From: an uncultured virus (IMG/VR IMGVR_UViG_2617271265_000001)
Taxonomy: Duplodnaviria > Heunggongvirae > Uroviricota > Caudoviricetes
Direction: 5' to 3' (one strand)
DNA: 64,000 nt
Virus record (IMG/VR): IMGVR_UViG_2617271265_000001
Part shown: positions 18,796-54,321 of the stretch, piece by piece
Position numbering within the stretch: the first letter of the stretch is position 1
How the letters are laid out: every line of letters begins with the position of its first letter
Position numbers and translations under genes: made by a program
The notes under the pieces: generated by a model
The model's input: the letters and a program-made list of their open reading frames with translations, nothing else
The model's database searches: none
What the model was told of the DNA's origin: nothing

Positions 18796-19479
18796 TTAAG
18801 TGAGATTTTTGCCGATGTGCACTACCTGCCCGATAACCTGTAAATCTTCCGCCTCGGCTTGCGTTAAGCGGATTGGCGGGTATTCATCTTTGTTATCTGA
18901 AATCAGTTCCAGCCCGTCCCAATTGATTTTAAGGCGTTTCACCCACACGCTGGCACCGTTTTGCACCAAGTAAATTTTATCGCCTTTAATCTCTTTCTTT
19001 GATAAATCCACCAACATCTGATCGCCGTCGTCAATGGTCGGGCGCATTGAAACGCCATCCGCCCAGAAAACGGCGCCGTGGCGCGGTTTTACGCTGAGTT
19101 TATGTAACAGTTCATCCGAATACGGTACTTGCCCGTCGGGCTGTGTCACGCCCTCATTAAAGCTGCCGTAACCCGCTGAAACATTAATGGAAGAAAAACT
19201 GTCAATCATTGTCACGCCGCTAATATCTTGAGTTATATTTACAGGTTCGGGATCTCCTTGTCCTGAGATTAGCCAACCAGCACTTACTCCCGAAGCTTCA
19301 GATATTCGGAATAAACTTGTTCTAGTAGGATCCGATTCGCCCTTAATCCATTTTACTAAGGATGGCTGTTGAACCCCAACAGCTCTAGAAAATTTACTGT
19401 AGTTACCATCAAATTTAGTATTTAAAAGAAATTGCATTCTTTTGGCAAACTCTTGGTCATAAACTTTAGCTTTACTCAT
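18796..19479 (-). CDS. Phage repressor, HTH + S24 peptidase (CI/LexA-like)
   Basis: N-terminal HTH, SAG cleavage-type site, GVSMRPTI (Ser) and VKRL (Lys). Confidence 0.92.
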   Translation of the reverse strand: MSKAKVYDQEFAKRMQFLLNTKFDGNYSKFSRAVGVQQPSLVKWIKGESDPTRTSLFRISEASGVSAGWLISGQGDPEPVNITQDISGVTMIDSFSSINVSAGYGSFNEGVTQPDGQVPYSDELLHKLSVKPRHGAVFWADGVSMRPTIDDGDQMLVDLSKKEIKGDKIYLVQNGASVWVKRLKINWDGLELISDNKDEYPPIRLTQAEAEDLQVIGQVVHIGKNLT

Positions 19480-20018: not shown

Positions 20019-22040
20019 ATGAGTAATTTAACTTTAAAAAGTCACTATACCGTCGCTGAGCTATTGCAGCTTCAAGTTTTAAGTTTACCTAAAACACATA
20101 AAGGCATATTAGGTAAAGCTGCTAGAGAAAAATGGGATAGTAGAAAACGGTCAAGTCGAGGCGGCGGCTATGAGTATGCCGTGAAATCCATGCCGGAAGC
20201 CGTGCAAGCCGAAATCGTTGTGAAATTCAATAAAAGTGCGGTGGAAAATTTACCTATTTTAGCCGAGCCAAAAGCCCCGGTCGAAGCGCAGTTGTTGTGG
20301 GCGCAGTACGAACAAGGCACCACCAAGGCGCAGAATGCGGCGAAGCTGAAACTGGGCACCATGTTTGCCGTGGCGGAATTGGTGAATGCCGGCGTAAAAC
20401 TGCTGGACGCCTTTGAACTGGTGTGCGGTAAGTATAACCGCGAATGCGCCGAAAAAGGGGAAAAACCGCTCTCTGTCGGATCATTAAAACGCTGGTGGTA
20501 TCACATTAAAAACGCCGACCGCAGCCTGTGGTTGCCGCTGTTGATGAGCGAACAAGGCAGCAACGGCAAAAGCCGTGAAGCCGCCTTCAGTGACGAAGCC
20601 TGGGCATTTTTCAAAGCGGACTATTTCCGCAACGAACGCCCGCAATTCGGCAGTTGTTACGAACGGTTGAAACGCGCCTCCAAGGCGAACGGCTGGGACA
20701 TCCCAAGCCCGTCCAGCATTAAACGCAAGATTGAGCGCGAAATCCCGAAAACCCACCAGGTGTACTTGCGCGAAGGGGAATATGCCATGAGCCGCTATTT
20801 CCCGGCATTGGTGCGCACCGTGGCAGATATAGATGCCATGGAATGGGTGAACGGTGACGGTTACAAACACAACGTGTGGGTGGAATGGCACAACGGCCAT
20901 ATTATCCGCCCGAAAACCTGGCTGTGGCAGGATGTGCGCACGCGCAAGGTGCTTGCCTACCGCTGCGATGAAACGGAAAACACCAACATGATCCGCCTGG
21001 CGCTGTTGGATGTGGTGGGCAAATATGGCATACCGAAACATCTCACCATCGACAACACCAAAGCGGCCGCCAACAAGAAAATGACGGGCGGGGTGAAAAA
21101 CCGTTACCGCTTTAAAGTGCGCGAAGACGAAGTGCAAGGGATTATCCCCGCTTTGGGTATCGAACTGCACTGGACAACGGTGCGCTACGGGCGCGGACGC
21201 GGGCAGGCCAAGCCGATTGAACGGGCGTTTTCGCACGGCGGCTTGGGCGAGCTGGTGGACAAACACCCGAGCCTTGCCGGGTTCCACGCCGGCGACAACC
21301 CGTTAGACAAGCCGGACAACTACCAAGGCAATAAAGCGGGCGCTGCCTATGCGGATTTTATCCTGGCTCTGGAAGAAGGCATTCAGATGTTCAACGAGCG
21401 CATCAACCGCGAAACGGAAATCTGCCAAGGGAAATTAAGTTTTAACGAGGCTTTTGAGCGAGATTTCGCTTTAATAGAAAAACGGTTCGCCACGCCGGAA
21501 CAGTTGCGCTATCTGCTGACCTTACACGAAGAAGTCACCTTAAAAGCCAACGGCACCTTTGAATTGAAGGCAGGCGGCAAAGTGAACGGTTTGCAAAACC
21601 GCTACGAAGCCTACGATTTAATCGGCACGCCGCATAAACACGTGGTAGTGCGGTTTGACCCTAACAATTTACACGACAAAGTGTGGGTGTATAGCTTAGA
21701 TGGTGCGTATTTAGCAGAAGCGACCTGTACACAAAGGGCGGGCTTCGGCGACACCAACGCCGCCCAAGACCACTCGCGTAAAGAACGCGAATTTGTGCGC
21801 CACACCAAAAAAGCCGCCCTTGCCGCACAGGAAATGGCGGCGCAACAAGCGGCGCAGTATTTGCCGGAAGTGGAATTCGACGACACTTCGAACGTGCCGC
21901 AAATGTGGGAAGTGATCCACCAGGAAGGCAGCACCCTGCGCAAGCGTGAAGTCGTATTGGAAGAGGATGAACAAGTCTCACCGTTCCAACAAGGCATCAA
22001 TAATTATTTAACCATGGCTAAAAAAGAAAAAGGGCTTTAA
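20019..22040 (+). CDS. Mu-like DDE transposase A
   Basis: N-terminal Mu HTH (GGGYEY), NGDGYKHN, TIDNT, AKPIERAF. Confidence 0.95.
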   Translation: MSNLTLKSHYTVAELLQLQVLSLPKTHKGILGKAAREKWDSRKRSSRGGGYEYAVKSMPEAVQAEIVVKFNKSAVENLPILAEPKAPVEAQLLWAQYEQGTTKAQNAAKLKLGTMFAVAELVNAGVKLLDAFELVCGKYNRECAEKGEKPLSVGSLKRWWYHIKNADRSLWLPLLMSEQGSNGKSREAAFSDEAWAFFKADYFRNERPQFGSCYERLKRASKANGWDIPSPSSIKRKIEREIPKTHQVYLREGEYAMSRYFPALVRTVADIDAMEWVNGDGYKHNVWVEWHNGHIIRPKTWLWQDVRTRKVLAYRCDETENTNMIRLALLDVVGKYGIPKHLTIDNTKAAANKKMTGGVKNRYRFKVREDEVQGIIPALGIELHWTTVRYGRGRGQAKPIERAFSHGGLGELVDKHPSLAGFHAGDNPLDKPDNYQGNKAGAAYADFILALEEGIQMFNERINRETEICQGKLSFNEAFERDFALIEKRFATPEQLRYLLTLHEEVTLKANGTFELKAGGKVNGLQNRYEAYDLIGTPHKHVVVRFDPNNLHDKVWVYSLDGAYLAEATCTQRAGFGDTNAAQDHSRKEREFVRHTKKAALAAQEMAAQQAAQYLPEVEFDDTSNVPQMWEVIHQEGSTLRKREVVLEEDEQVSPFQQGINNYLTMAKKEKGL

Positions 22041-22394: not shown

Positions 22395-22659
22395 AGCCAA
22401 AATGTTTTGATAGCTGCTTAAGGTAATCGTTTCGCTCTTGTTCAGATTTAATGCTCATGAATGTTCCGCGATAGTGATGCCAATCTATTTCTAACTGATG
22501 AATAGAGGTTGAGCAGCTTAAAAATAAAAAGCGATATAAACGTTTCATGATTTTAGGATTAAGTCCTTCAAATAGAGCGGATGATTGTTTTGCTGACTTG
22601 TTGATTAGTGTTTCAAATTCATCTTGTTCAATGTTCAGGAATGAAGAGAAATTAGACAT
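22150..22659 (-). CDS. Hypothetical protein (169 aa), antisense to the early operon
   Basis: Starts MSNFSSFLNIEQ with AAGGGTAGG upstream; AT-rich. Confidence 0.6.
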   Translation of the reverse strand: MSNFSSFLNIEQDEFETLINKSAKQSSALFEGLNPKIMKRLYRFLFLSCSTSIHQLEIDWHHYRGTFMSIKSEQERNDYLKQLSKHFGFRGELMISLLLYLQWRFVMRLDILEECLSLTDNLIRDEQALQPIPTFLLALTNIQRAIDFQLPDWLPEFDDPAFFSSSLNR

Positions 22660-22699
22660 AGATATAAACCTACCCTTAAAAGAAAACAAGGACAATATT

Positions 22700-23617
22700 A
22701 TGACACTCATTGACCAAATTAAACCACTTTTAGAACAACAAATTTTCACCCAACGCGATATTGCCCAGCAAAGCGGCATTTCCGCCGGTGCGTTGAGCAC
22801 CTACTTAAAAGGCGTTTACAAAGGCAATATCGACAACATTGAAAGCGCGCTTGCCAACTGGCTTGACACGCGCAAAAAGAAAGAACAAGTGTTTGTGGAA
22901 GCACCGCACTTTATTGAAATTCCGACTGCGAAAAAGGTGTTTGCCTCGCTTGATATGGCAAAAATCCTGCCGACCATGGTCACCGTTTACGGCGCAAGCG
23001 GCGTAGGCAAAACCAAAGCCTGCCAAGAGTATGCGAAGAACAACCACAACGTGTGGATGATTACGGCAAGCCCAAGCAGAGCGACATTAAGCAGTATTTT
23101 GTATGAACTGGCGTTAGAACTCGACGTTAACGATGCACCTCGTCGCAAAGACCGCTTATCACGCATGATCACTAAGAAACTTAAAGGTACGCAAGGCTTA
23201 GTGATTATCGACGAAAGCGACCACTTGCCTTATGACGCGCTTGAAGAGATCCGAATCATACAAGAAGAGACCGAAACCGGCTTTGCGCTGATCGGCAACG
23301 ACAAAGTGTACACCCGCATTCAGGGCGGCGTGAACCAAGCCCATGAATACGCCCGGTTATGGTCTCGCATTGGCAACAATTGCGGCGTAAAAGCCTCGAC
23401 ACGTGGCGATATTAAAGCCATTGCACAGGCGTGGGGCTTAGATATTGCCGACAAAGACCTAATGACGGTGCTTTACGACATAGGCGGCAAAGCGGGCGGA
23501 TTACGCGCTTTAACCCAATATTTACGCCTTGCAGGCATGACAGCCAAGGGGCAAGACACAGTAATTACTTTAGACCTGATTTTAACCGCCCAAGCACAAA
23601 TGAAAGGAGCAAATTAA
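22700..23617 (+). CDS. Mu B-like transposition ATPase
   Basis: N-terminal HTH, GASGVGKT Walker A, IIDESD Walker B. Confidence 0.95.
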   Translation: MTLIDQIKPLLEQQIFTQRDIAQQSGISAGALSTYLKGVYKGNIDNIESALANWLDTRKKKEQVFVEAPHFIEIPTAKKVFASLDMAKILPTMVTVYGASGVGKTKACQEYAKNNHNVWMITASPSRATLSSILYELALELDVNDAPRRKDRLSRMITKKLKGTQGLVIIDESDHLPYDALEEIRIIQEETETGFALIGNDKVYTRIQGGVNQAHEYARLWSRIGNNCGVKASTRGDIKAIAQAWGLDIADKDLMTVLYDIGGKAGGLRALTQYLRLAGMTAKGQDTVITLDLILTAQAQMKGAN

Positions 23618-31479: not shown

Positions 31480-31611
31480 ATGAGATATGTACCACTTTGC
31501 TTAATGATGTGTGCAACATTTTACCTATTTATTCACAATATGAATGGCTGGGGTTGGAGCATTTTTATTTCTTTAATTTTAGCGAGTGCAGCTTATGGCA
31601 GCGAAAAATAA
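31480..31611 (+). CDS. Small membrane protein (43 aa)
   Basis: MRYVPLCLMMCATFYLFIHNMNGWGWSIFISLILAS; AAGGA RBS. Confidence 0.5.
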   Translation: MRYVPLCLMMCATFYLFIHNMNGWGWSIFISLILASAAYGSEK

Positions 31612-33055
31612 AAACCTTGTAAACGAAATCGCTACCCGAGCGAGAAGTATTGATTACTGGGCATTTGGCTATTACCTGCCAAACCCCGATCCCATTCTTA
31701 AAAAAATGGGTAAAGACATCGCAGTCTATCGCGAGTTGCTTTCCGACGGTCAAGTTCGCTCAGGCGTACGCCGTCGCAAAGCAGCCATCAAAGGCTTAGA
31801 GTGGCGAATTACGACCACCAATAATGAAAAGGTGGATGCGAAAATTTCGCAAATTTTCGACCGTTTGCCGATGAACAATATCATCACGGAAATGCTCAAT
31901 GCTACGCTTTACGGCTATCAAGTCAGCGAAGTAATGTGGGGCGAACGTGATGGCTTATTTGTGCCAGTGGAAATTATCGGCAAAAAACCTGAATGGTTTG
32001 TTTTTGATGACGAAAACCGCCTACGCTTTCGCACCAAAGAAAGCTGGGTAAATGGCGAGCTCTTGCCTGATGATAAGTTTTTATTGACTACCCAAGAAGC
32101 CACCCAAGACAACCCGTACGGCTTGGGCGATTTATCGCTCTGCTTTTGGGCGGCGACGTTCAAAAAAGGCGGCTTTAAATTTTGGTTGGAATTTACAGAA
32201 AAATACGGCTCACCGTGGATTATTGGTAAGCACCCAATCCAAAATAATGATACGGATAAAAACCGCCTTGCTGATCAGTTAGAAGCAATGATTGGTTCAG
32301 CCATTGCTGTTATTCCTGAAGGTAGTAGCGTCGAAATCAAAGAAGCCGCAGGTAAATCAGCCAGCACCGATGCCTTTGAAAAATTCCTGAATTTCTGCAA
32401 GGCGGAAATCAACATCGCCTTACTCGGTCAAAACCAAACCACCGAGCAAGAAAGCAACCGCGCATCAGCCACCGCTGGGCTTGAAGTCTTAGACAGCATT
32501 CGTTCGGACGACCAAGCGATTGTCGAAGCGACTTTTAATCAGCTTTTACAATGGATTGTGAAATACAATTTCAATGTAGAACAACTGCCGAGGTTTGAGT
32601 TTTACGAGCAGGAAGAAATCAACACTGCCCAAGTAGAACGTGATACCAAGCTACATTCAATGGGTGTACTTTTTACGAAAGAATACTTCCAACGTGAATA
32701 TGGCTTTGAAGATGGCGATATTACGGTGCAAACAGAGACAGAAAATGCAGTCACAAACCCGCAAGTTTCTGAGTTTGCTGAACCCAACCACCAAGGCTTA
32801 CACCCGATTGCTGCTGGCATTATTGAACAGCTAGAAATTGAAGGCGAAAGCCACGTGGACGATTGGCTTCAATCCATTAAAGACCAACTGGGGCAAGCCG
32901 AAAGCCTAGAAGATTTTCGCAACCAACTCGACAGTTTAATCCCTGAATTGAGCTTTGCGGAATATGGCGAGTTGTTGGCGTGGGGTTCGACCGTTGCCGA
33001 ATTGGCAGGTCGCCAGTCGGTAAATGATGAGCGTAAGGCAAAAGGCGATGAGTAA
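31595..33055 (+). CDS. Portal protein (Mu gp29/DUF935-like)
   Basis: LPNPDPIL, NPYGLG, FTEKYGSP, ALLGQNQTT. Confidence 0.9.
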   Translation: MAAKNKNLVNEIATRARSIDYWAFGYYLPNPDPILKKMGKDIAVYRELLSDGQVRSGVRRRKAAIKGLEWRITTTNNEKVDAKISQIFDRLPMNNIITEMLNATLYGYQVSEVMWGERDGLFVPVEIIGKKPEWFVFDDENRLRFRTKESWVNGELLPDDKFLLTTQEATQDNPYGLGDLSLCFWAATFKKGGFKFWLEFTEKYGSPWIIGKHPIQNNDTDKNRLADQLEAMIGSAIAVIPEGSSVEIKEAAGKSASTDAFEKFLNFCKAEINIALLGQNQTTEQESNRASATAGLEVLDSIRSDDQAIVEATFNQLLQWIVKYNFNVEQLPRFEFYEQEEINTAQVERDTKLHSMGVLFTKEYFQREYGFEDGDITVQTETENAVTNPQVSEFAEPNHQGLHPIAAGIIEQLEIEGESHVDDWLQSIKDQLGQAESLEDFRNQLDSLIPELSFAEYGELLAWGSTVAELAGRQSVNDERKAKGDE

Positions 33056-34316
33056 ATTTACCTTTGAAAACCAAGCCAAATACTTTGAGAAAAAACTCAA
33101 CCTTAAAACCAACAGCTATTTGGATATTTTGGGCGAAGAACACGACTATTTTTTCGTGGTTGCTGGAGCGAACCGCAACGAAGTGCTAACCGAATTTCGC
33201 CAAGCAATCGATGAGGCAATTCTTAACGGTGAAACTTTGGAAAGTTTCCGCAAGCGTTTTGATGAAATCGTGGCAAAAACCGGCTGGGAATATAACGGCG
33301 GTCGCAACTGGCGAACACGGATTATTTACGACACCAACGTTTATAGCTCGTATAACCGAGGACGATTACAACAGCACCTAGAGCTTGCTGAAAATATGCC
33401 CTATTGGGAATATCAACACAACGATAATGCTCACCCACGTTTGGAACATATGGCGTGGGACGGTTTAGTGTTGCGTTATGACGACCCGTGGTGGCGTTAT
33501 CATTACCCTGTGAAAGCCTACGGTTGTCACTGCACCGTGATTGCCCACGATGAGATGGACTTAGACCACTACGGCAAAAAGCTCGGCACCGCACCACCTG
33601 TTGAAATGGAACAGAAAACCGTGGGCATTCGTTCTGGCAATCCACGCACGGTAACTATTCCCAAAGGCACGGACGTGGGCTTCACACCCCATAACTTTGA
33701 GAATATCAAAGCAGGCAGAAATACCAGTATTGACAGCGTGCTAATGCAAAAGCTCGTTACTGCCGAGCCGAAGTTCGCGAGTTTGCTCGTAGAAAACATT
33801 TTGCAACGACCGCAAGCGGTGGCGATGTTAAATTTGGCAATGAAAGATATGGTGGATAAGGTTGCCGTTGAGAAAGTGGCCCGTGGCTCAATGAAATATG
33901 TGGGCGTTGTGCCACCTGATGTCATCACCAAACTTGAAGCAAAAGAACTCTCACCGCAAACGGCAGTCATTGCTGTACGTGATGAAGATGTGTTGCACGC
34001 TTTGCGTGATACAAAACAAGGCAAAGGCATTAACTTGCCTATTGAGTTTTGGGAGAATTTACCCGAAAAGTTACGTAGCCCAACGGCTATTTTGCTTGAT
34101 ACAACTCAGGCTAAGAATGCTTTGATTTTTGTTTATGATGATGACGCTGGCAAAGTGTTAGTGACAATGGACTATTCAGTCAAAATCAAAGACCCTATTT
34201 CAAAAACGAAACAGCGTGCAGAATTGAATATTGTAAAAACAGGTGGCTTAATTACGCAGGAAAATGAGTGGAAAAATTTGAAAAATGCGTATGAGATTTT
34301 GTGGGGAGAATTATAG
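33048..34316 (+). CDS. MuF (gp30) head morphogenesis protein with C-terminal extension
   Basis: TRIIYDTN, PYWEY..HPRLEH.AWDG, P..YGCHC MuF core, followed by ~190 extra residues. Confidence 0.9.
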   Translation: MSKFTFENQAKYFEKKLNLKTNSYLDILGEEHDYFFVVAGANRNEVLTEFRQAIDEAILNGETLESFRKRFDEIVAKTGWEYNGGRNWRTRIIYDTNVYSSYNRGRLQQHLELAENMPYWEYQHNDNAHPRLEHMAWDGLVLRYDDPWWRYHYPVKAYGCHCTVIAHDEMDLDHYGKKLGTAPPVEMEQKTVGIRSGNPRTVTIPKGTDVGFTPHNFENIKAGRNTSIDSVLMQKLVTAEPKFASLLVENILQRPQAVAMLNLAMKDMVDKVAVEKVARGSMKYVGVVPPDVITKLEAKELSPQTAVIAVRDEDVLHALRDTKQGKGINLPIEFWENLPEKLRSPTAILLDTTQAKNALIFVYDDDAGKVLVTMDYSVKIKDPISKTKQRAELNIVKTGGLITQENEWKNLKNAYEILWGEL

Positions 34317-34317
34317 C

Positions 34318-34394
34318 ACACGGTGGTTTGCCTGATTCGAACAGGATCATACGGGCGAAACCGCAACCTTTCCAGTAGGAAACCCCCACCGTGT
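34318..34394 (-). ncRNA. Putative tRNA-like cloverleaf small RNA
   Basis: 9-bp closing stem ACACGGTGG/CCACCGTGT enclosing three hairpins, including CCTG-TTCGAAT-CAGG (T-loop consensus); promoter immediately upstream. Confidence 0.6.
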
Positions 34395-34399
34395 TTTCC

Positions 34400-34428
34400 A
34401 CTATACGCCACTCAAATTTGAAAGGCAA
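34400..34428 (-). promoter_or_regulatory. sigma70-type promoter for the cloverleaf RNA
   Basis: TTGCCT-17 nt-TATAGT; predicted +1 at ~34393-34394. Confidence 0.65.
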
Positions 34429-34432
34429 TACT

Positions 34433-34897
34433 ATGATTAAAATTACTTTAGACGACACGCAAGCAGTCAAATCTTTAAGAGAAATTGCAAGCCAACTGCA
34501 AAAACCACGCCGTTTATATGGCATTTTAGGTGAAACTTTAAAGAAAATCCACACCGACCGTTTTAAGGCAGAAACCGACCCCGAAGATAAGAAGTGGAAA
34601 CGGCTTTCAGACCGCACGCTTGCACTCAAACGCAAGCGTGGTAAATCTACCAAGATTTTGCGTCAAGATGGTTACCTTGCAGATAAGACTGCTTACAATG
34701 TCAGTAATGACAGTGTTGAATTTGGTTCGCAAGAAATCTACGCAAGGTTACATCAATTTGGTGGTAAAGCTGGGCGTAGTAAAAAAGTAAACATTCCGGC
34801 TCGCCCGTGGCTCGGCGCAGGTGAGAAAGACGAGCAATTACTATTACGCAAAGCAGAGTGGCATTTAAGCCAAATTATCAGTCGAATGGGGAGATAA
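34433..34897 (+). CDS. Virion morphogenesis protein (Mu gpG-like)
   Basis: RFKAETDP..KWK.LS, YARLHQFGG, IPARPWLG. Confidence 0.9.
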   Translation: MIKITLDDTQAVKSLREIASQLQKPRRLYGILGETLKKIHTDRFKAETDPEDKKWKRLSDRTLALKRKRGKSTKILRQDGYLADKTAYNVSNDSVEFGSQEIYARLHQFGGKAGRSKKVNIPARPWLGAGEKDEQLLLRKAEWHLSQIISRMGR

Positions 34898-35067
34898 TCC
34901 CCAAAAATCAAAAATAACGCATAAAACCGCCTACGTGGCGTTTTTGTGTTAATTAAATGAATTTATCATTTTAAAAAATTTAAACGCTATAAAAACGATT
35001 TAAACGGCATTTAAACGGTATTGTAGTTCATTTTAAATATCCATTCCTCTATACCTCATTTCAAAAC

Positions 35068-35111
35068 TTTAAACGACTTTAAAAGCGGTTTTCTCACCGA
35101 CTAATTATTAT
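35068..35111 (+). promoter_or_regulatory. Putative late promoter 2 (protease/capsid operon)
   Basis: TTTAAA-CGAC-TTTAAA-N22-TATTAT. Confidence 0.7.
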
Positions 35112-53649: not shown

Positions 53650-53857
53650 TCAATTTGACCGTGCGCAACAATTAGAAGAAATGCAACGGGAAATCGCCCT
53701 GAAAAAACACCGCACTTTTAAGGCAGTCAGCCGTCTTTACTGTGAAGATTGCGATGCACCCATTCCCGAAAAACGCCGACAGCTTATTCACGGCGTCACC
53801 CGTTGTGTGATATGCCAAGAACGGGAAGAAAAACGCCAACGGAATTTTAGAAAATGA
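53642..53857 (+). CDS. TraR/DksA C4 zinc-finger protein
   Basis: DRAQ, CEDC..PIPE.RR, RCVICQ. Confidence 0.9.
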   Translation: MTDQFDRAQQLEEMQREIALKKHRTFKAVSRLYCEDCDAPIPEKRRQLIHGVTRCVICQEREEKRQRNFRK

Positions 53858-54321
53858 AAAAACCCAACCAACTGCGAAAAATCCTTGAGCAAAGTTTGCC
53901 GGATTTCATTGAAAACCCCGACCGCTTACAGCTTTACACGGACGGCGGGCAAATTATCGCTACCGGAGCAAACTCGTTCAGTTTTGAATATCGCTACACA
54001 CTCAACATCATTGTGACCGATTACGCCGGTGATATTGCTGCTTTGGTTGTACCGATGATTGCCTATCTTCGCACCAATCAACCGGAAATCTTTGAAAACC
54101 CCCAGTTGCGTGAAAATGCCTTCAAGTTTCAGGTGGATTACAACAATAACGACACGGCAGACATCAGTTTTGAAATCAAACTCACCGAACGTGTAGTATC
54201 GAAAAAAGACGGCGACAGCGTGCAACTTAATTATGCAAAAGAACCGGTGCTTGATGATCCGCGCCTTGTAAAAGTTTATTTGCAGACTTGGGATAATTTG
54301 ATTTTTGAGGGTGAAGTCTGA
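53854..54321 (+). CDS. Tail completion protein R
   Basis: MKKPNQLR, SFEYRYTLN, LTERV. Confidence 0.9.
   Translation: MKKPNQLRKILEQSLPDFIENPDRLQLYTDGGQIIATGANSFSFEYRYTLNIIVTDYAGDIAALVVPMIAYLRTNQPEIFENPQLRENAFKFQVDYNNNDTADISFEIKLTERVVSKKDGDSVQLNYAKEPVLDDPRLVKVYLQTWDNLIFEGEV

Follow-up and report, generated by a model that had tools for sequence, protein, structure and literature searches.

Type III toxin-antitoxin systems pair a toxin with an RNA antitoxin made of pseudoknot repeats, which are encoded upstream of the toxin gene on the same strand, with a terminator between the two. In ToxIN-like systems, the RNA antitoxin inhibits an endoribonuclease (on ToxIN, see PMC8860590). Among phage proteins, the C-terminus of Mu gp30 has been assigned to the PBECR domains and named "MuF-C", and the parts of that survey dealing with Mu describe the domain as inactive there and predict an RNA-binding role for the inactive form (Iyer et al., 2017, PMC5512222); in sections of another study, Mu GpF is treated as a monodomain protein (Jamet, 2017, PMC5576092). 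The present analysis concerns a 77-nucleotide (nt) tRNA-like RNA gene on the minus strand of a 64,000-nt stretch of DNA from an uncultured virus (IMG/VR IMGVR_UViG_2617271265_000001; "the window"), which lies directly after the gene for a MuF minor head protein. The RNA is real and structured, and we tentatively propose that it binds and silences the MuF-C domain encoded beside it.

The locus resembles several described systems and differs from each. Like type III systems, it would set a structured RNA against a protein RNase, as proposed here, and some loci carry tandem RNA units; unlike them, it places the RNA gene after the nuclease gene and in opposite orientation, its units fold as cloverleaves, and its nuclease is one domain of a virion protein. 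With the MuF polymorphic toxins and polyvalent proteins, as portrayed in portions of two papers (PMC5576092; PMC5512222), it shares a MuF N-terminus, an exchangeable C-terminal effector and a downstream element exchanged along with it, but the partner here is an opposite-strand RNA gene and not an open reading frame (ORF) for an immunity protein. The colicin D tRNase, paired with ImmD, and the CdiA-CT tRNases provide the best structural matches to the MuF-C model (Z of at most 5.5), whereas immunity in those systems is a protein. Canonical and phage tRNAs have in common with the element the cloverleaf, the T-arm with its G53-C61 pair, the UUCGAAU loop and a GG in a D-loop-like position; unlike a canonical tRNA, the element has a T-stem of 4 bp and a closing stem of 6-12 bp with 3-4 extra nt on each side. 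P1 c4 and P4 CI RNAs, the tRNA-like domain of transfer-messenger RNA (tmRNA) and YrlA are likewise small RNAs with a closing stem around hairpins or a tRNA-like T-arm. The window element has no match to the Rfam C4 model, and its presumed resemblance to YrlA and to the tmRNA domain was checked through Rfam. What is new here is an RNA family with no match in Rfam 15; the PBECR assignment of MuF-C was already made in passages of PMC5512222.

The RNA element and its likeness to tRNA

The element and its promoter consist of the following parts.

34318..34394, minus strand: tRNA-like small RNA gene, 77 nt (fold, family alignment, covariance model at 91.7 bits, strand tests)
34318-34326 with 34386-34394: closing stem P1, 9 bp, ACACGGTGG pairing with CCACCGTGT; in RNA order, 34394-34386 with 34326-34318
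34385-34383, minus strand: GGG linker
34382-34369, minus strand: D-arm-like segment UUUCCUACUGGAAA
34365-34350, minus strand: variable hairpin P3
34345-34331, minus strand: T-arm CCUG-UUCGAAU-CAGG
34330-34327, minus strand: CAAA linker
34400..34428, minus strand: sigma-70-type promoter of the RNA, -35 TTGCCT at 34428-34423, 17-nt spacer, -10 TATAGT at 34405-34400 (9/12 in a promoter scan)

On the minus strand the three arms read UUUCC-UACU-GGAAA, (U)GCGG-UUUCGC-CCGU(A) and CCUG-UUCGAAU-CAGG, and the minimum free energy fold is a four-way cloverleaf of -28.2 kcal/mol. The cloverleaf, stems, loops and promoter described in a sequence-only reading of the window were all recovered at the same positions, and the minimum free energy fold is the same one. 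The z-scores of this single sequence, -1.8 for the minus strand and -3.3 for the plus strand, are unremarkable, and the element is held to be more than a chance fold because of the comparative evidence below. It is single-copy in its 2.5-Mb genome, where it is the sole strong match to covariance model R1 (91.7 bits). The D-like segment can fold in two ways, as UUUCC/GGAAA with a UACU loop or as CCU/AGG with an ACUGGAA loop, which were compared and are not firmly separable; two related loci (loci are given L numbers) favor the tRNA-like CCU/AGG stem with GG in the loop, L229 through a GG to AG change accompanied by U to G in the T-loop, and L018 through a double change from C-G to U-A.

Outside the family, R1 matches tRNA genes: tRNA-Gln alone elsewhere in the window's own genome (18 bits), and tRNA-Met(CAU) genes alone in 150 genomes of the class (25.9 bits). 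Real tRNA-Met and tRNA-Gln align with R1 over its full length, and the 15-nt T-arm is identical to that of tRNA-Met. The G53-C61 pair closes a 7-nt T-loop that conforms to UUCRANY, and a G-C pair closes this loop in all types of the family. The tRNA anticodon loop (7 nt, U33, purine 37, conserved 5-bp stem) is absent: the loop at that position is UUUCGC, 6 nt, in the window, and ranges from 3 to 8 nt, often GNRA or UUCG, among the 55 unique versions. Absent too is the tRNA acceptor (7 bp abutting the T-stem, discriminator and CCA), the element having a 9-bp stem, GGG and CAAA linkers and no CCA. ARAGORN calls no tRNA in the window, and a search of 34100-34600 against Rfam 15 with E up to 10 returned just three chance long non-coding RNA rows (E 4.8-6.2). 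The sequence-only description of a promoter-driven tRNA-like RNA that is not a normal tRNA is borne out. We regard the RNA as tRNA-derived, with the elbow parts kept (closing stem, D-like GG and T-arm) and the decoding parts lost.

Distribution and covariation of the RNA family

Relatives were collected by blastn in a sample of 201 genomes of the same bacterial family, and by an exact two-anchor pattern search that by design requires the D-like arm and the T-arm. By blastn the element occurs in 32 of the 201 genomes, the window's own included, and the full element directly follows the MuF gene in 26 of 27 fetched loci, the exception being L010; in Pasteurella phage AFS-2018a it sits inside an unannotated gap. 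The pattern search gave 46 loci in named genomes, from many Pasteurellaceae genera, four Neisseria species, Conchiformibius, Cardiobacterium, Moraxella, Faucicola, Pelistega and a Pseudomonadales metagenome-assembled genome (MAG), and at least 64 loci in viral contigs. The pattern loci listed, the window and 31 earlier loci together amount to at least 158 copies (91 unique with flanks, 55 unique cores) and come from the Pasteurellaceae, Neisseriaceae, Cardiobacteriaceae, Moraxellaceae and Pelistega. Units often stand in tandem, two or three to an array. At the nucleotide level the element is up to 97% identical between loci whose MuF proteins share 58-69% identity.

Covariation was assessed in alignment A1, which holds 79 distinct copies whose P1 rows were trimmed by complementarity, with minus-strand wobbles alone allowed. 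In A1, 95.5% of cells are paired, compared with 76.3% in shuffles and 33-46% with slid partners, and compensatory changes on both sides occur in all 10 closing-stem pairs and in 4 of the 5 pairs at the base of P3; a lack of stem covariation in homologues had been named beforehand as counter-evidence, and covariation is present. The D-like arm and the T-arm of the main type are invariant in A1, and the same invariance is seen in the blastn-based set. From 5′ to 3′ the consensus is P1 (6-12 bp)-GGG-UUUCCUACUGGAAA-GGU-P3 (variable)-U(U/G)AU-CCUG UUCGAAU CAGG-C(A/G)A(A/G/U)-P1′. Searches of seven related loci in Rfam 15 with E up to 0.1 matched no family, save for a 17-nt T-arm match to tmRNA in L190, and no description of this RNA was found in the literature and article passages searched. 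By eye, the type of P3 is associated with the last ~25 residues of MuF, an association indistinguishable from physical linkage.

A second, divergent type (L150, L152, L153 and L229-L231) extends the covariation to the T-stem, which is CCUG/CAGG in the main type and AAGG/CCUU, GAGG/CCUC or GGCG/CGCC in type 2. Its T-loops are canonical (UUCGAGU, UUCGAUU and UGCGAGU), CG alone separates the T-stem from P1′, and the D-loop is AGUUGGUAA or AAUUGGUAA. ARAGORN labels two type 2 copies as tRNA-Stop(tta) and tRNA-Ile(aat) (L150 1292-1363 and L153 953-1026). They are not read as decoding tRNAs because the loops at the anticodon position differ among them and CCA is lacking; such calls in annotations are probably members of this RNA family.

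Strand, promoter and transcript ends

The minus strand is the RNA strand, judging from P3 stability, G·U pairs and tetraloops. Of 55 unique versions of P3, 37 form the stabler hairpin on the minus strand and 16 on the plus strand, with two ties (mean difference -1.48 kcal/mol); several fold on the minus strand only (e.g., -12.3 vs. -0.6 kcal/mol), and nearly all fold there in one register. At the base of P3, 31 G·U cells stand against 8 A·C cells, and its tips carry nine GNRA and two UNCG loops on the minus strand, compared with one of each on the plus strand. The closing stem was dropped as a strand indicator, P1 alone not being decisive: its wobble totals are equal (8 and 8), although positions 1-7 give 5 vs. 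1 for the minus strand and the plus-strand wobbles lie mostly in a doubtful outer extension. The 100% P1 pairing in A1 and its 7 P1 G·U cells were left out of the strand call because trimming biased them.

The promoter is conserved with the RNA. In 71 of 78 unique promoter-proximal flanks, a promoter scoring at least 9/12 lies at the equivalent place; 39 of the 71 are TTGATT-17-TATAGT, and the others have TTGTCT, TTGCCT, TTGCGT or TTGATA, with 16-18-nt spacing. Chromosomal copies have TTGCAT-16-TATAAT, and tandem arrays have a single promoter ahead of all units. The -10 box ends 5 nt before the closing stem in the window; in most copies its end is 15-19 nt ahead of the junction, so that +1 would fall on the first bases of P1. 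The -35 box of the window promoter overlaps the ribosome-binding region of the next gene, gpG. In vivo, the RNA would be transcribed from this constitutive-type promoter of its own.

At the other end, the window stem is followed by TTTT, a T-run that is not conserved in relatives, and the 3′ end is presumably made by processing. The non-phage copy in L010 has an intrinsic terminator directly after the element, on the RNA strand. One RNA-library contig ends within the element, at 34373, and is uninformative on transcript ends.

The C-terminal domain of MuF

The following features of the MuF gene are relevant to the RNA.

33048..34316, plus strand: MuF (Mu gp30/F-like minor head protein), 422 residues (Pfam Phage_Mu_F, phrog_220)
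33945..34313, plus strand: MuF-C domain, PBECR/BECR-like predicted RNase, residues ~300-422
33996-33998, plus strand: codon of His317 in MuF-C
34239-34241, plus strand: codon of Thr398 in MuF-C

An alternative in-frame ATG upstream, at 33024, is possible for MuF, and homologues align from residues 1-3 of the start at 33048; the TAG stop codon is 34314-34316. Pfam Phage_Mu_F matches residues 49-165 (E 2.8e-15) and phrog_220 matches residues 3-421 (E 1.9e-93). The region beyond the Pfam core is therefore ~255 residues long, more than the ~190 of the sequence-only reading, and is standard for the family and no add-on, because phrog_220 covers residues 3-421. Of the nuclease-like extension that had been proposed, the notion of a special fusion falls away, since this is the ordinary C-terminal domain of Mu F proteins; its likeness to PBECR domains is supported by passages of PMC5512222, by weak Pfam matches and by low-Z structural alignments.

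The proposed catalytic residues, His317 and Thr398, are invariant in 18 relatives (alignment A2). In an AlphaFold model of MuF-C (predicted local distance difference test score 71, predicted template modeling score 0.67), the His falls in helix 123-129 and the Thr in the late strand 205-213. An exhaustive VIA-align search with this model placed the colicin D tRNase first (Z 5.5, root-mean-square deviation 2.8 Å over 85 residues; second entry Z 4.7), a score under the tool's noise guide of 7-8. Next came BrnT (4.7), two CdiA-CT tRNases (4.4 and 4.2), and then RelE, YafQ, HigB, ParE and MqsR. Foldseek with the same model gave no PDB match at E <= 0.001, and the A2 profile found nothing below E 0.1 among PDB sequences. 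Both Pfam domain scores of the window protein are below the gathering score, at 16.5 bits for MuF_C (cut-off 27.6) and 14.9 bits for PBECR2 (cut-off 27.1); among the relatives, weak matches are found to MuF_C in 13/18 and to PBECR2 in 2/18. When A2 was compared by hhalign with A5, an alignment of PBECR2 relatives, the probability was 0.2% and only the "LPEKLRSPTAIL / LAEALKFPDEIW" segment aligned. Since no score is significant, the fold is assigned from the consistency of the matches as a family, from the pattern of residues and from the profile analysis in the literature; on this assignment MuF-C would be a colicin-D-like (PBECR) domain, with putative RNase activity.

Co-occurrence of MuF-C types and RNA types

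The RNA accompanies this type of MuF-C. Of the 80 viral loci that encode it, 74 show an R1 match immediately behind the stop codon, L222 is at a contig end, and the remaining five (L190, L191 and L238-L240) have T-arm units of other kinds there. In L190 and L191 the T-arm of the unit is GUGGG-UUCGAGU-CCCAC. In the family sample, all 33 full-length close MuF genes are paired with an RNA, 31 with the element and two with the L190-type unit. In L190, L149 and L151 this unit, 150 nt long, was observed ~150 nt after MuF. A third type, in L238-L240, is a 65-nt unit, GAUGGCG...GUUGG-UUCAAAU-CCAAC...CGCCAUC-UUUU. All RNA-bearing MuF proteins aligned keep the His and Thr, those of a 33%-identical lineage and of Campylobacter phage CAM-P21 among them; in CAM-P21 the minus strand of the 125-nt gap (L250 2200-2330, MW462221.2) reads AGAUAAGG...GUGAG-UGCAAGU-CUCAC-CG-CCUUAUCU, again a closing stem and a T-arm. 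This gap is annotated as a 30-residue hypothetical ORF.

MuF proteins with a different C-terminal half have a different RNA. PBECR2-type MuF genes were found at 14 places in the family sample; their N-halves are 51-55% identical and their C-halves are unalignable, a bona fide PBECR2 C-half being confirmed in the two tested (E 2.5e-28 and 2.7e-30). None of seven such loci examined has an R1 match, and in six of the seven another structured minus-strand RNA follows MuF. This RNA (L154-L159, present twice in L158) is ~85 nt long, with a -10 like TATAGT and a U-run whose end coincides with the MuF stop codon. Its hairpin loop and the loop of the intrinsic terminator behind it are complementary and covary among CUGCCA/UGGCAG, CCGCCA/UGGCGG and CCGACA/UGUCGG. 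Related N-halves joined to a different C-half and a different RNA indicate that nuclease domain and RNA are exchanged as a module, like toxin-immunity cassettes.

Ten outgroup phages were also compared. The His is absent from Mu, JBD67, MP42 and Klebsiella phage ST405-OXA48phi1.1, and in these four phages the F gene overlaps or abuts the G gene. No MuF-C is alignable in JBD25, where a single base separates F from G. The F proteins of BcepMu and YPCBV-1 are short and lack the domain, and no gap follows their genes. Domain searches with Pseudoalteromonas phage HS6 and Chromohalobacter phage YPCBV-1 yielded no useful assignments. The distribution of the RNA among viral loci, His-less outgroups and PBECR2-type loci favors the link with the C-terminal region that the sequence-only reading had drawn.

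Prophage setting and copies away from MuF

From ~18.8 to 52.2 kb the window is a complete Mu-like prophage by gene content and Pfam and PHROG matches. It also encodes Gam, an amidase and the small and large terminase subunits, and 3′ of gpG lie genes for a head protease, major head protein, sheath, tape measure, baseplate and tail fiber. Its other principal features are listed below.

18796-19479, minus strand: CI-like repressor
20019-22040: transposase A
22547-23617: B protein
31586-33055: Mu portal
34433..34897, plus strand: gpG-like virion morphogenesis/tail completion protein, the next late gene after MuF (Pfam Phage_tail_S, E 6.3e-30; phrog_26)

The element occupies the 116-nt gap between MuF and gpG. 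The ORF list holds no separate plus-strand ORF of at least 40 residues in this gap, its sole plus-strand entry being a GTG-started in-frame extension of gpG (34391-34897), in agreement with the earlier remark that no immunity ORF separates the two genes. Past the tail-fiber end of the prophage, a tail-terminator-like gene (phrog_65, 53854-54321) and a long ORF beyond 55087 possibly mark a second phage-derived region.

The F-G junction is a general insertion site for morons. In L004-L031, varied small ORF cassettes lie between the RNA promoter block and gpG, inserted directly after the conserved block ACTATACGCC...TTTTTTAATCAATAGGAG, and some hold convergent small genes and a common hairpin, AAGCGTGG...CCACGCTT. 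Second copies of the RNA are accompanied by partial duplications of the MuF 3′ end in L015 and L021.

Not all copies adjoin MuF. A MuF C-terminus lies within 400 nt in 97 of the 110 pattern loci listed and not in 13, though in two of these (L098 and L118) a short MuF-tail-like ORF still ends next to the element. The L010 copy (1498-1573) is flanked by a D5_N/DUF5906 primase-like gene and a Mor gene. In Faucicola, the Pseudomonadales MAG (six copies at three sites), Conchiformibius and Pelistega, copies are found between housekeeping or defense genes (L252-L265); the neighbors include a rhodanese gene beside a tRNA-tufB cluster, an rnfC-like gene, purD/mnmE, dus/recA and, in Pelistega, the R subunit gene of a type I restriction system.

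Proposed function and alternative explanations

We propose that the minus strand of 34318-34394 encodes a trans-acting, tRNA-derived small RNA with its own promoter, which would act as a non-cleavable tRNA mimic and bind the PBECR/MuF-C RNase domain of the adjacent MuF. In the manner of a type III antitoxin, the bound RNA would keep MuF-C harmless in the producing or lysogenic cell, and orphan copies would provide stand-alone protection. Known colicin D-type relatives cut tRNAs. The pseudo-substrate reading is the most economical because the tRNA elbow is kept and the anticodon lost, another nuclease type goes with another RNA, and MuF phages with a His-less MuF-C have none. The proposal is tentative: for a direct functional link of any kind between the RNA and MuF-C, we consider the case evenly balanced, and the narrower claim that the RNA is a pseudo-substrate that would bind and silence MuF-C stands somewhat below that. 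The fullest version is doubtful as a whole; it has the virion carry a MuF-C RNase that is neutralized by a tRNA-derived immunity RNA with a tetraloop in place of the anticodon loop, bacteria and satellites capture orphan copies against injected RNases, and a second RNA serve the PBECR2-type MuF proteins.

Several observations weigh against the proposal, beginning with the subthreshold profile and structure scores of MuF-C given above. Co-occurrence is confounded by phage lineage and was set against ten outgroup phages, of which Ralstonia phage YO381_1 keeps the His (the Thr being Ala) yet has no gap for an RNA. Since the F-G junction is a general moron site, adjacency alone is weak evidence. 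With the window MuF as query, no MuF homologue was found in genomes G352 and G355, which have six and three copies of the RNA, and orphan copies would fit orphan immunity and a MuF-independent function equally. A constitutive-looking promoter for the RNA sits oddly with MuF being a late protein, and phage copies have no terminator after P1′. Public contigs of relatives' DNA or RNA over 33700-35000, from a single RNA run with a share of 0.06 and two others of unrecorded kind with a share of 0.23, carry neither strand nor starts nor ends.

The alternative that survives best, though we consider it unlikely, is that the RNA is a tRNA-mimic cargo unrelated to MuF, carried at the permissive F-G junction. 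Such an RNA might act on a reader of the elbow or T-arm (RNase P, the CCA-adding enzyme, TruB, TrmA or EF-Tu), and the invariant T-arm and D-like arm are indeed the parts read by host tRNA enzymes; or it might be a decoy against contact-dependent inhibition (CDI) or bacteriocin tRNases or anticodon nucleases, the last being improbable because the arm at the anticodon position is not conserved. Stand-alone, promoter-bearing copies among housekeeping genes, including those in the two genomes without a MuF match, the copy in the primase/Mor element and the many unrelated morons at the junction all fit a cargo. A cargo accounts poorly, however, for T-arm RNAs of four sequence types after His/Thr MuF-C genes as far away as Campylobacter, for the other RNA that PBECR2-type MuF genes bear at the same place, and for the absence of an RNA from phages with a His-less MuF-C.

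The RNA could instead be a partner of MuF-C without silencing it, either a substrate that the domain processes, as ToxN processes ToxI, or a ligand packaged with the protein or used in head assembly or DNA ejection. The same co-occurrence data would apply, tandem arrays of 2-3 units behind one promoter need processing, and an RNA-binding role is predicted for inactive MuF-C in passages of PMC5512222. We regard this as improbable, given the orphan copies in genomes without a MuF match and the lack of such an RNA in Mu, which has the inactive "RNA-binding" domain.

Less probable again is a cis-acting role, in which antisense transcription or transcriptional interference would control the late operon or downstream morons in the manner of P4 CI or P1 c4, as the sequence-only reading had offered as its second choice. 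The promoter does oppose the late operon, its -35 overlaps the ribosome-binding region of the next plus-strand gene, and transcription that meets no terminator in phage copies could enter MuF in antisense. Against this, selection acts on nucleotides of tertiary structure (the T-loop and the GG) and not on pairing sequences, conserved single-stranded segments are just 3-7 nt long, and no match to the Rfam C4 model was found. Because orphan copies occur in chromosomes, far from MuF and antisense to nothing comparable, an obligatory cis-antisense role is excluded.

A plus-strand mRNA element (terminator, stabilizer or processing site), a DNA site or a decaying tRNA pseudogene is scarcely credible: the better plus-strand z and the TTTT after the window stem would suit the first, but the T-run is unconserved and G·U pairs, tetraloops and hairpin stability favor the minus strand, and neutral decay is excluded because the element is 97% identical across phages with ~60%-identical proteins and shows compensatory changes. 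Among DNA sites, the strong gyrase site of Mu was considered for the element's mid-prophage position and rejected, because the Mu site lies between G and I and the element has RNA-type covariation. The annotation of phage Mu places the gyrase cut site, a terminator and the late promoter in that G-I gap; the corresponding gap between gpG and the head protease is 213 nt long here (34898-35110) and lies near the middle of the prophage.

Significance

The element represents a widespread and constrained RNA family, with at least 158 copies in at least five bacterial families of animal mucosa, and a case of a tRNA gene remodeled into a non-decoding RNA. For annotation, some relatives are miscalled as suppressor or Ile tRNAs, and one copy as a 30-residue ORF. 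Its strict placement beside the least understood domain of Mu F makes both the role of MuF-C and the control by RNA of phage-injected BECR RNases testable. If the immunity reading is true, RNA antitoxins of the type III kind would extend to polymorphic-toxin-like phage effectors, and the chromosomal copies would be identified as "orphan immunity RNAs".

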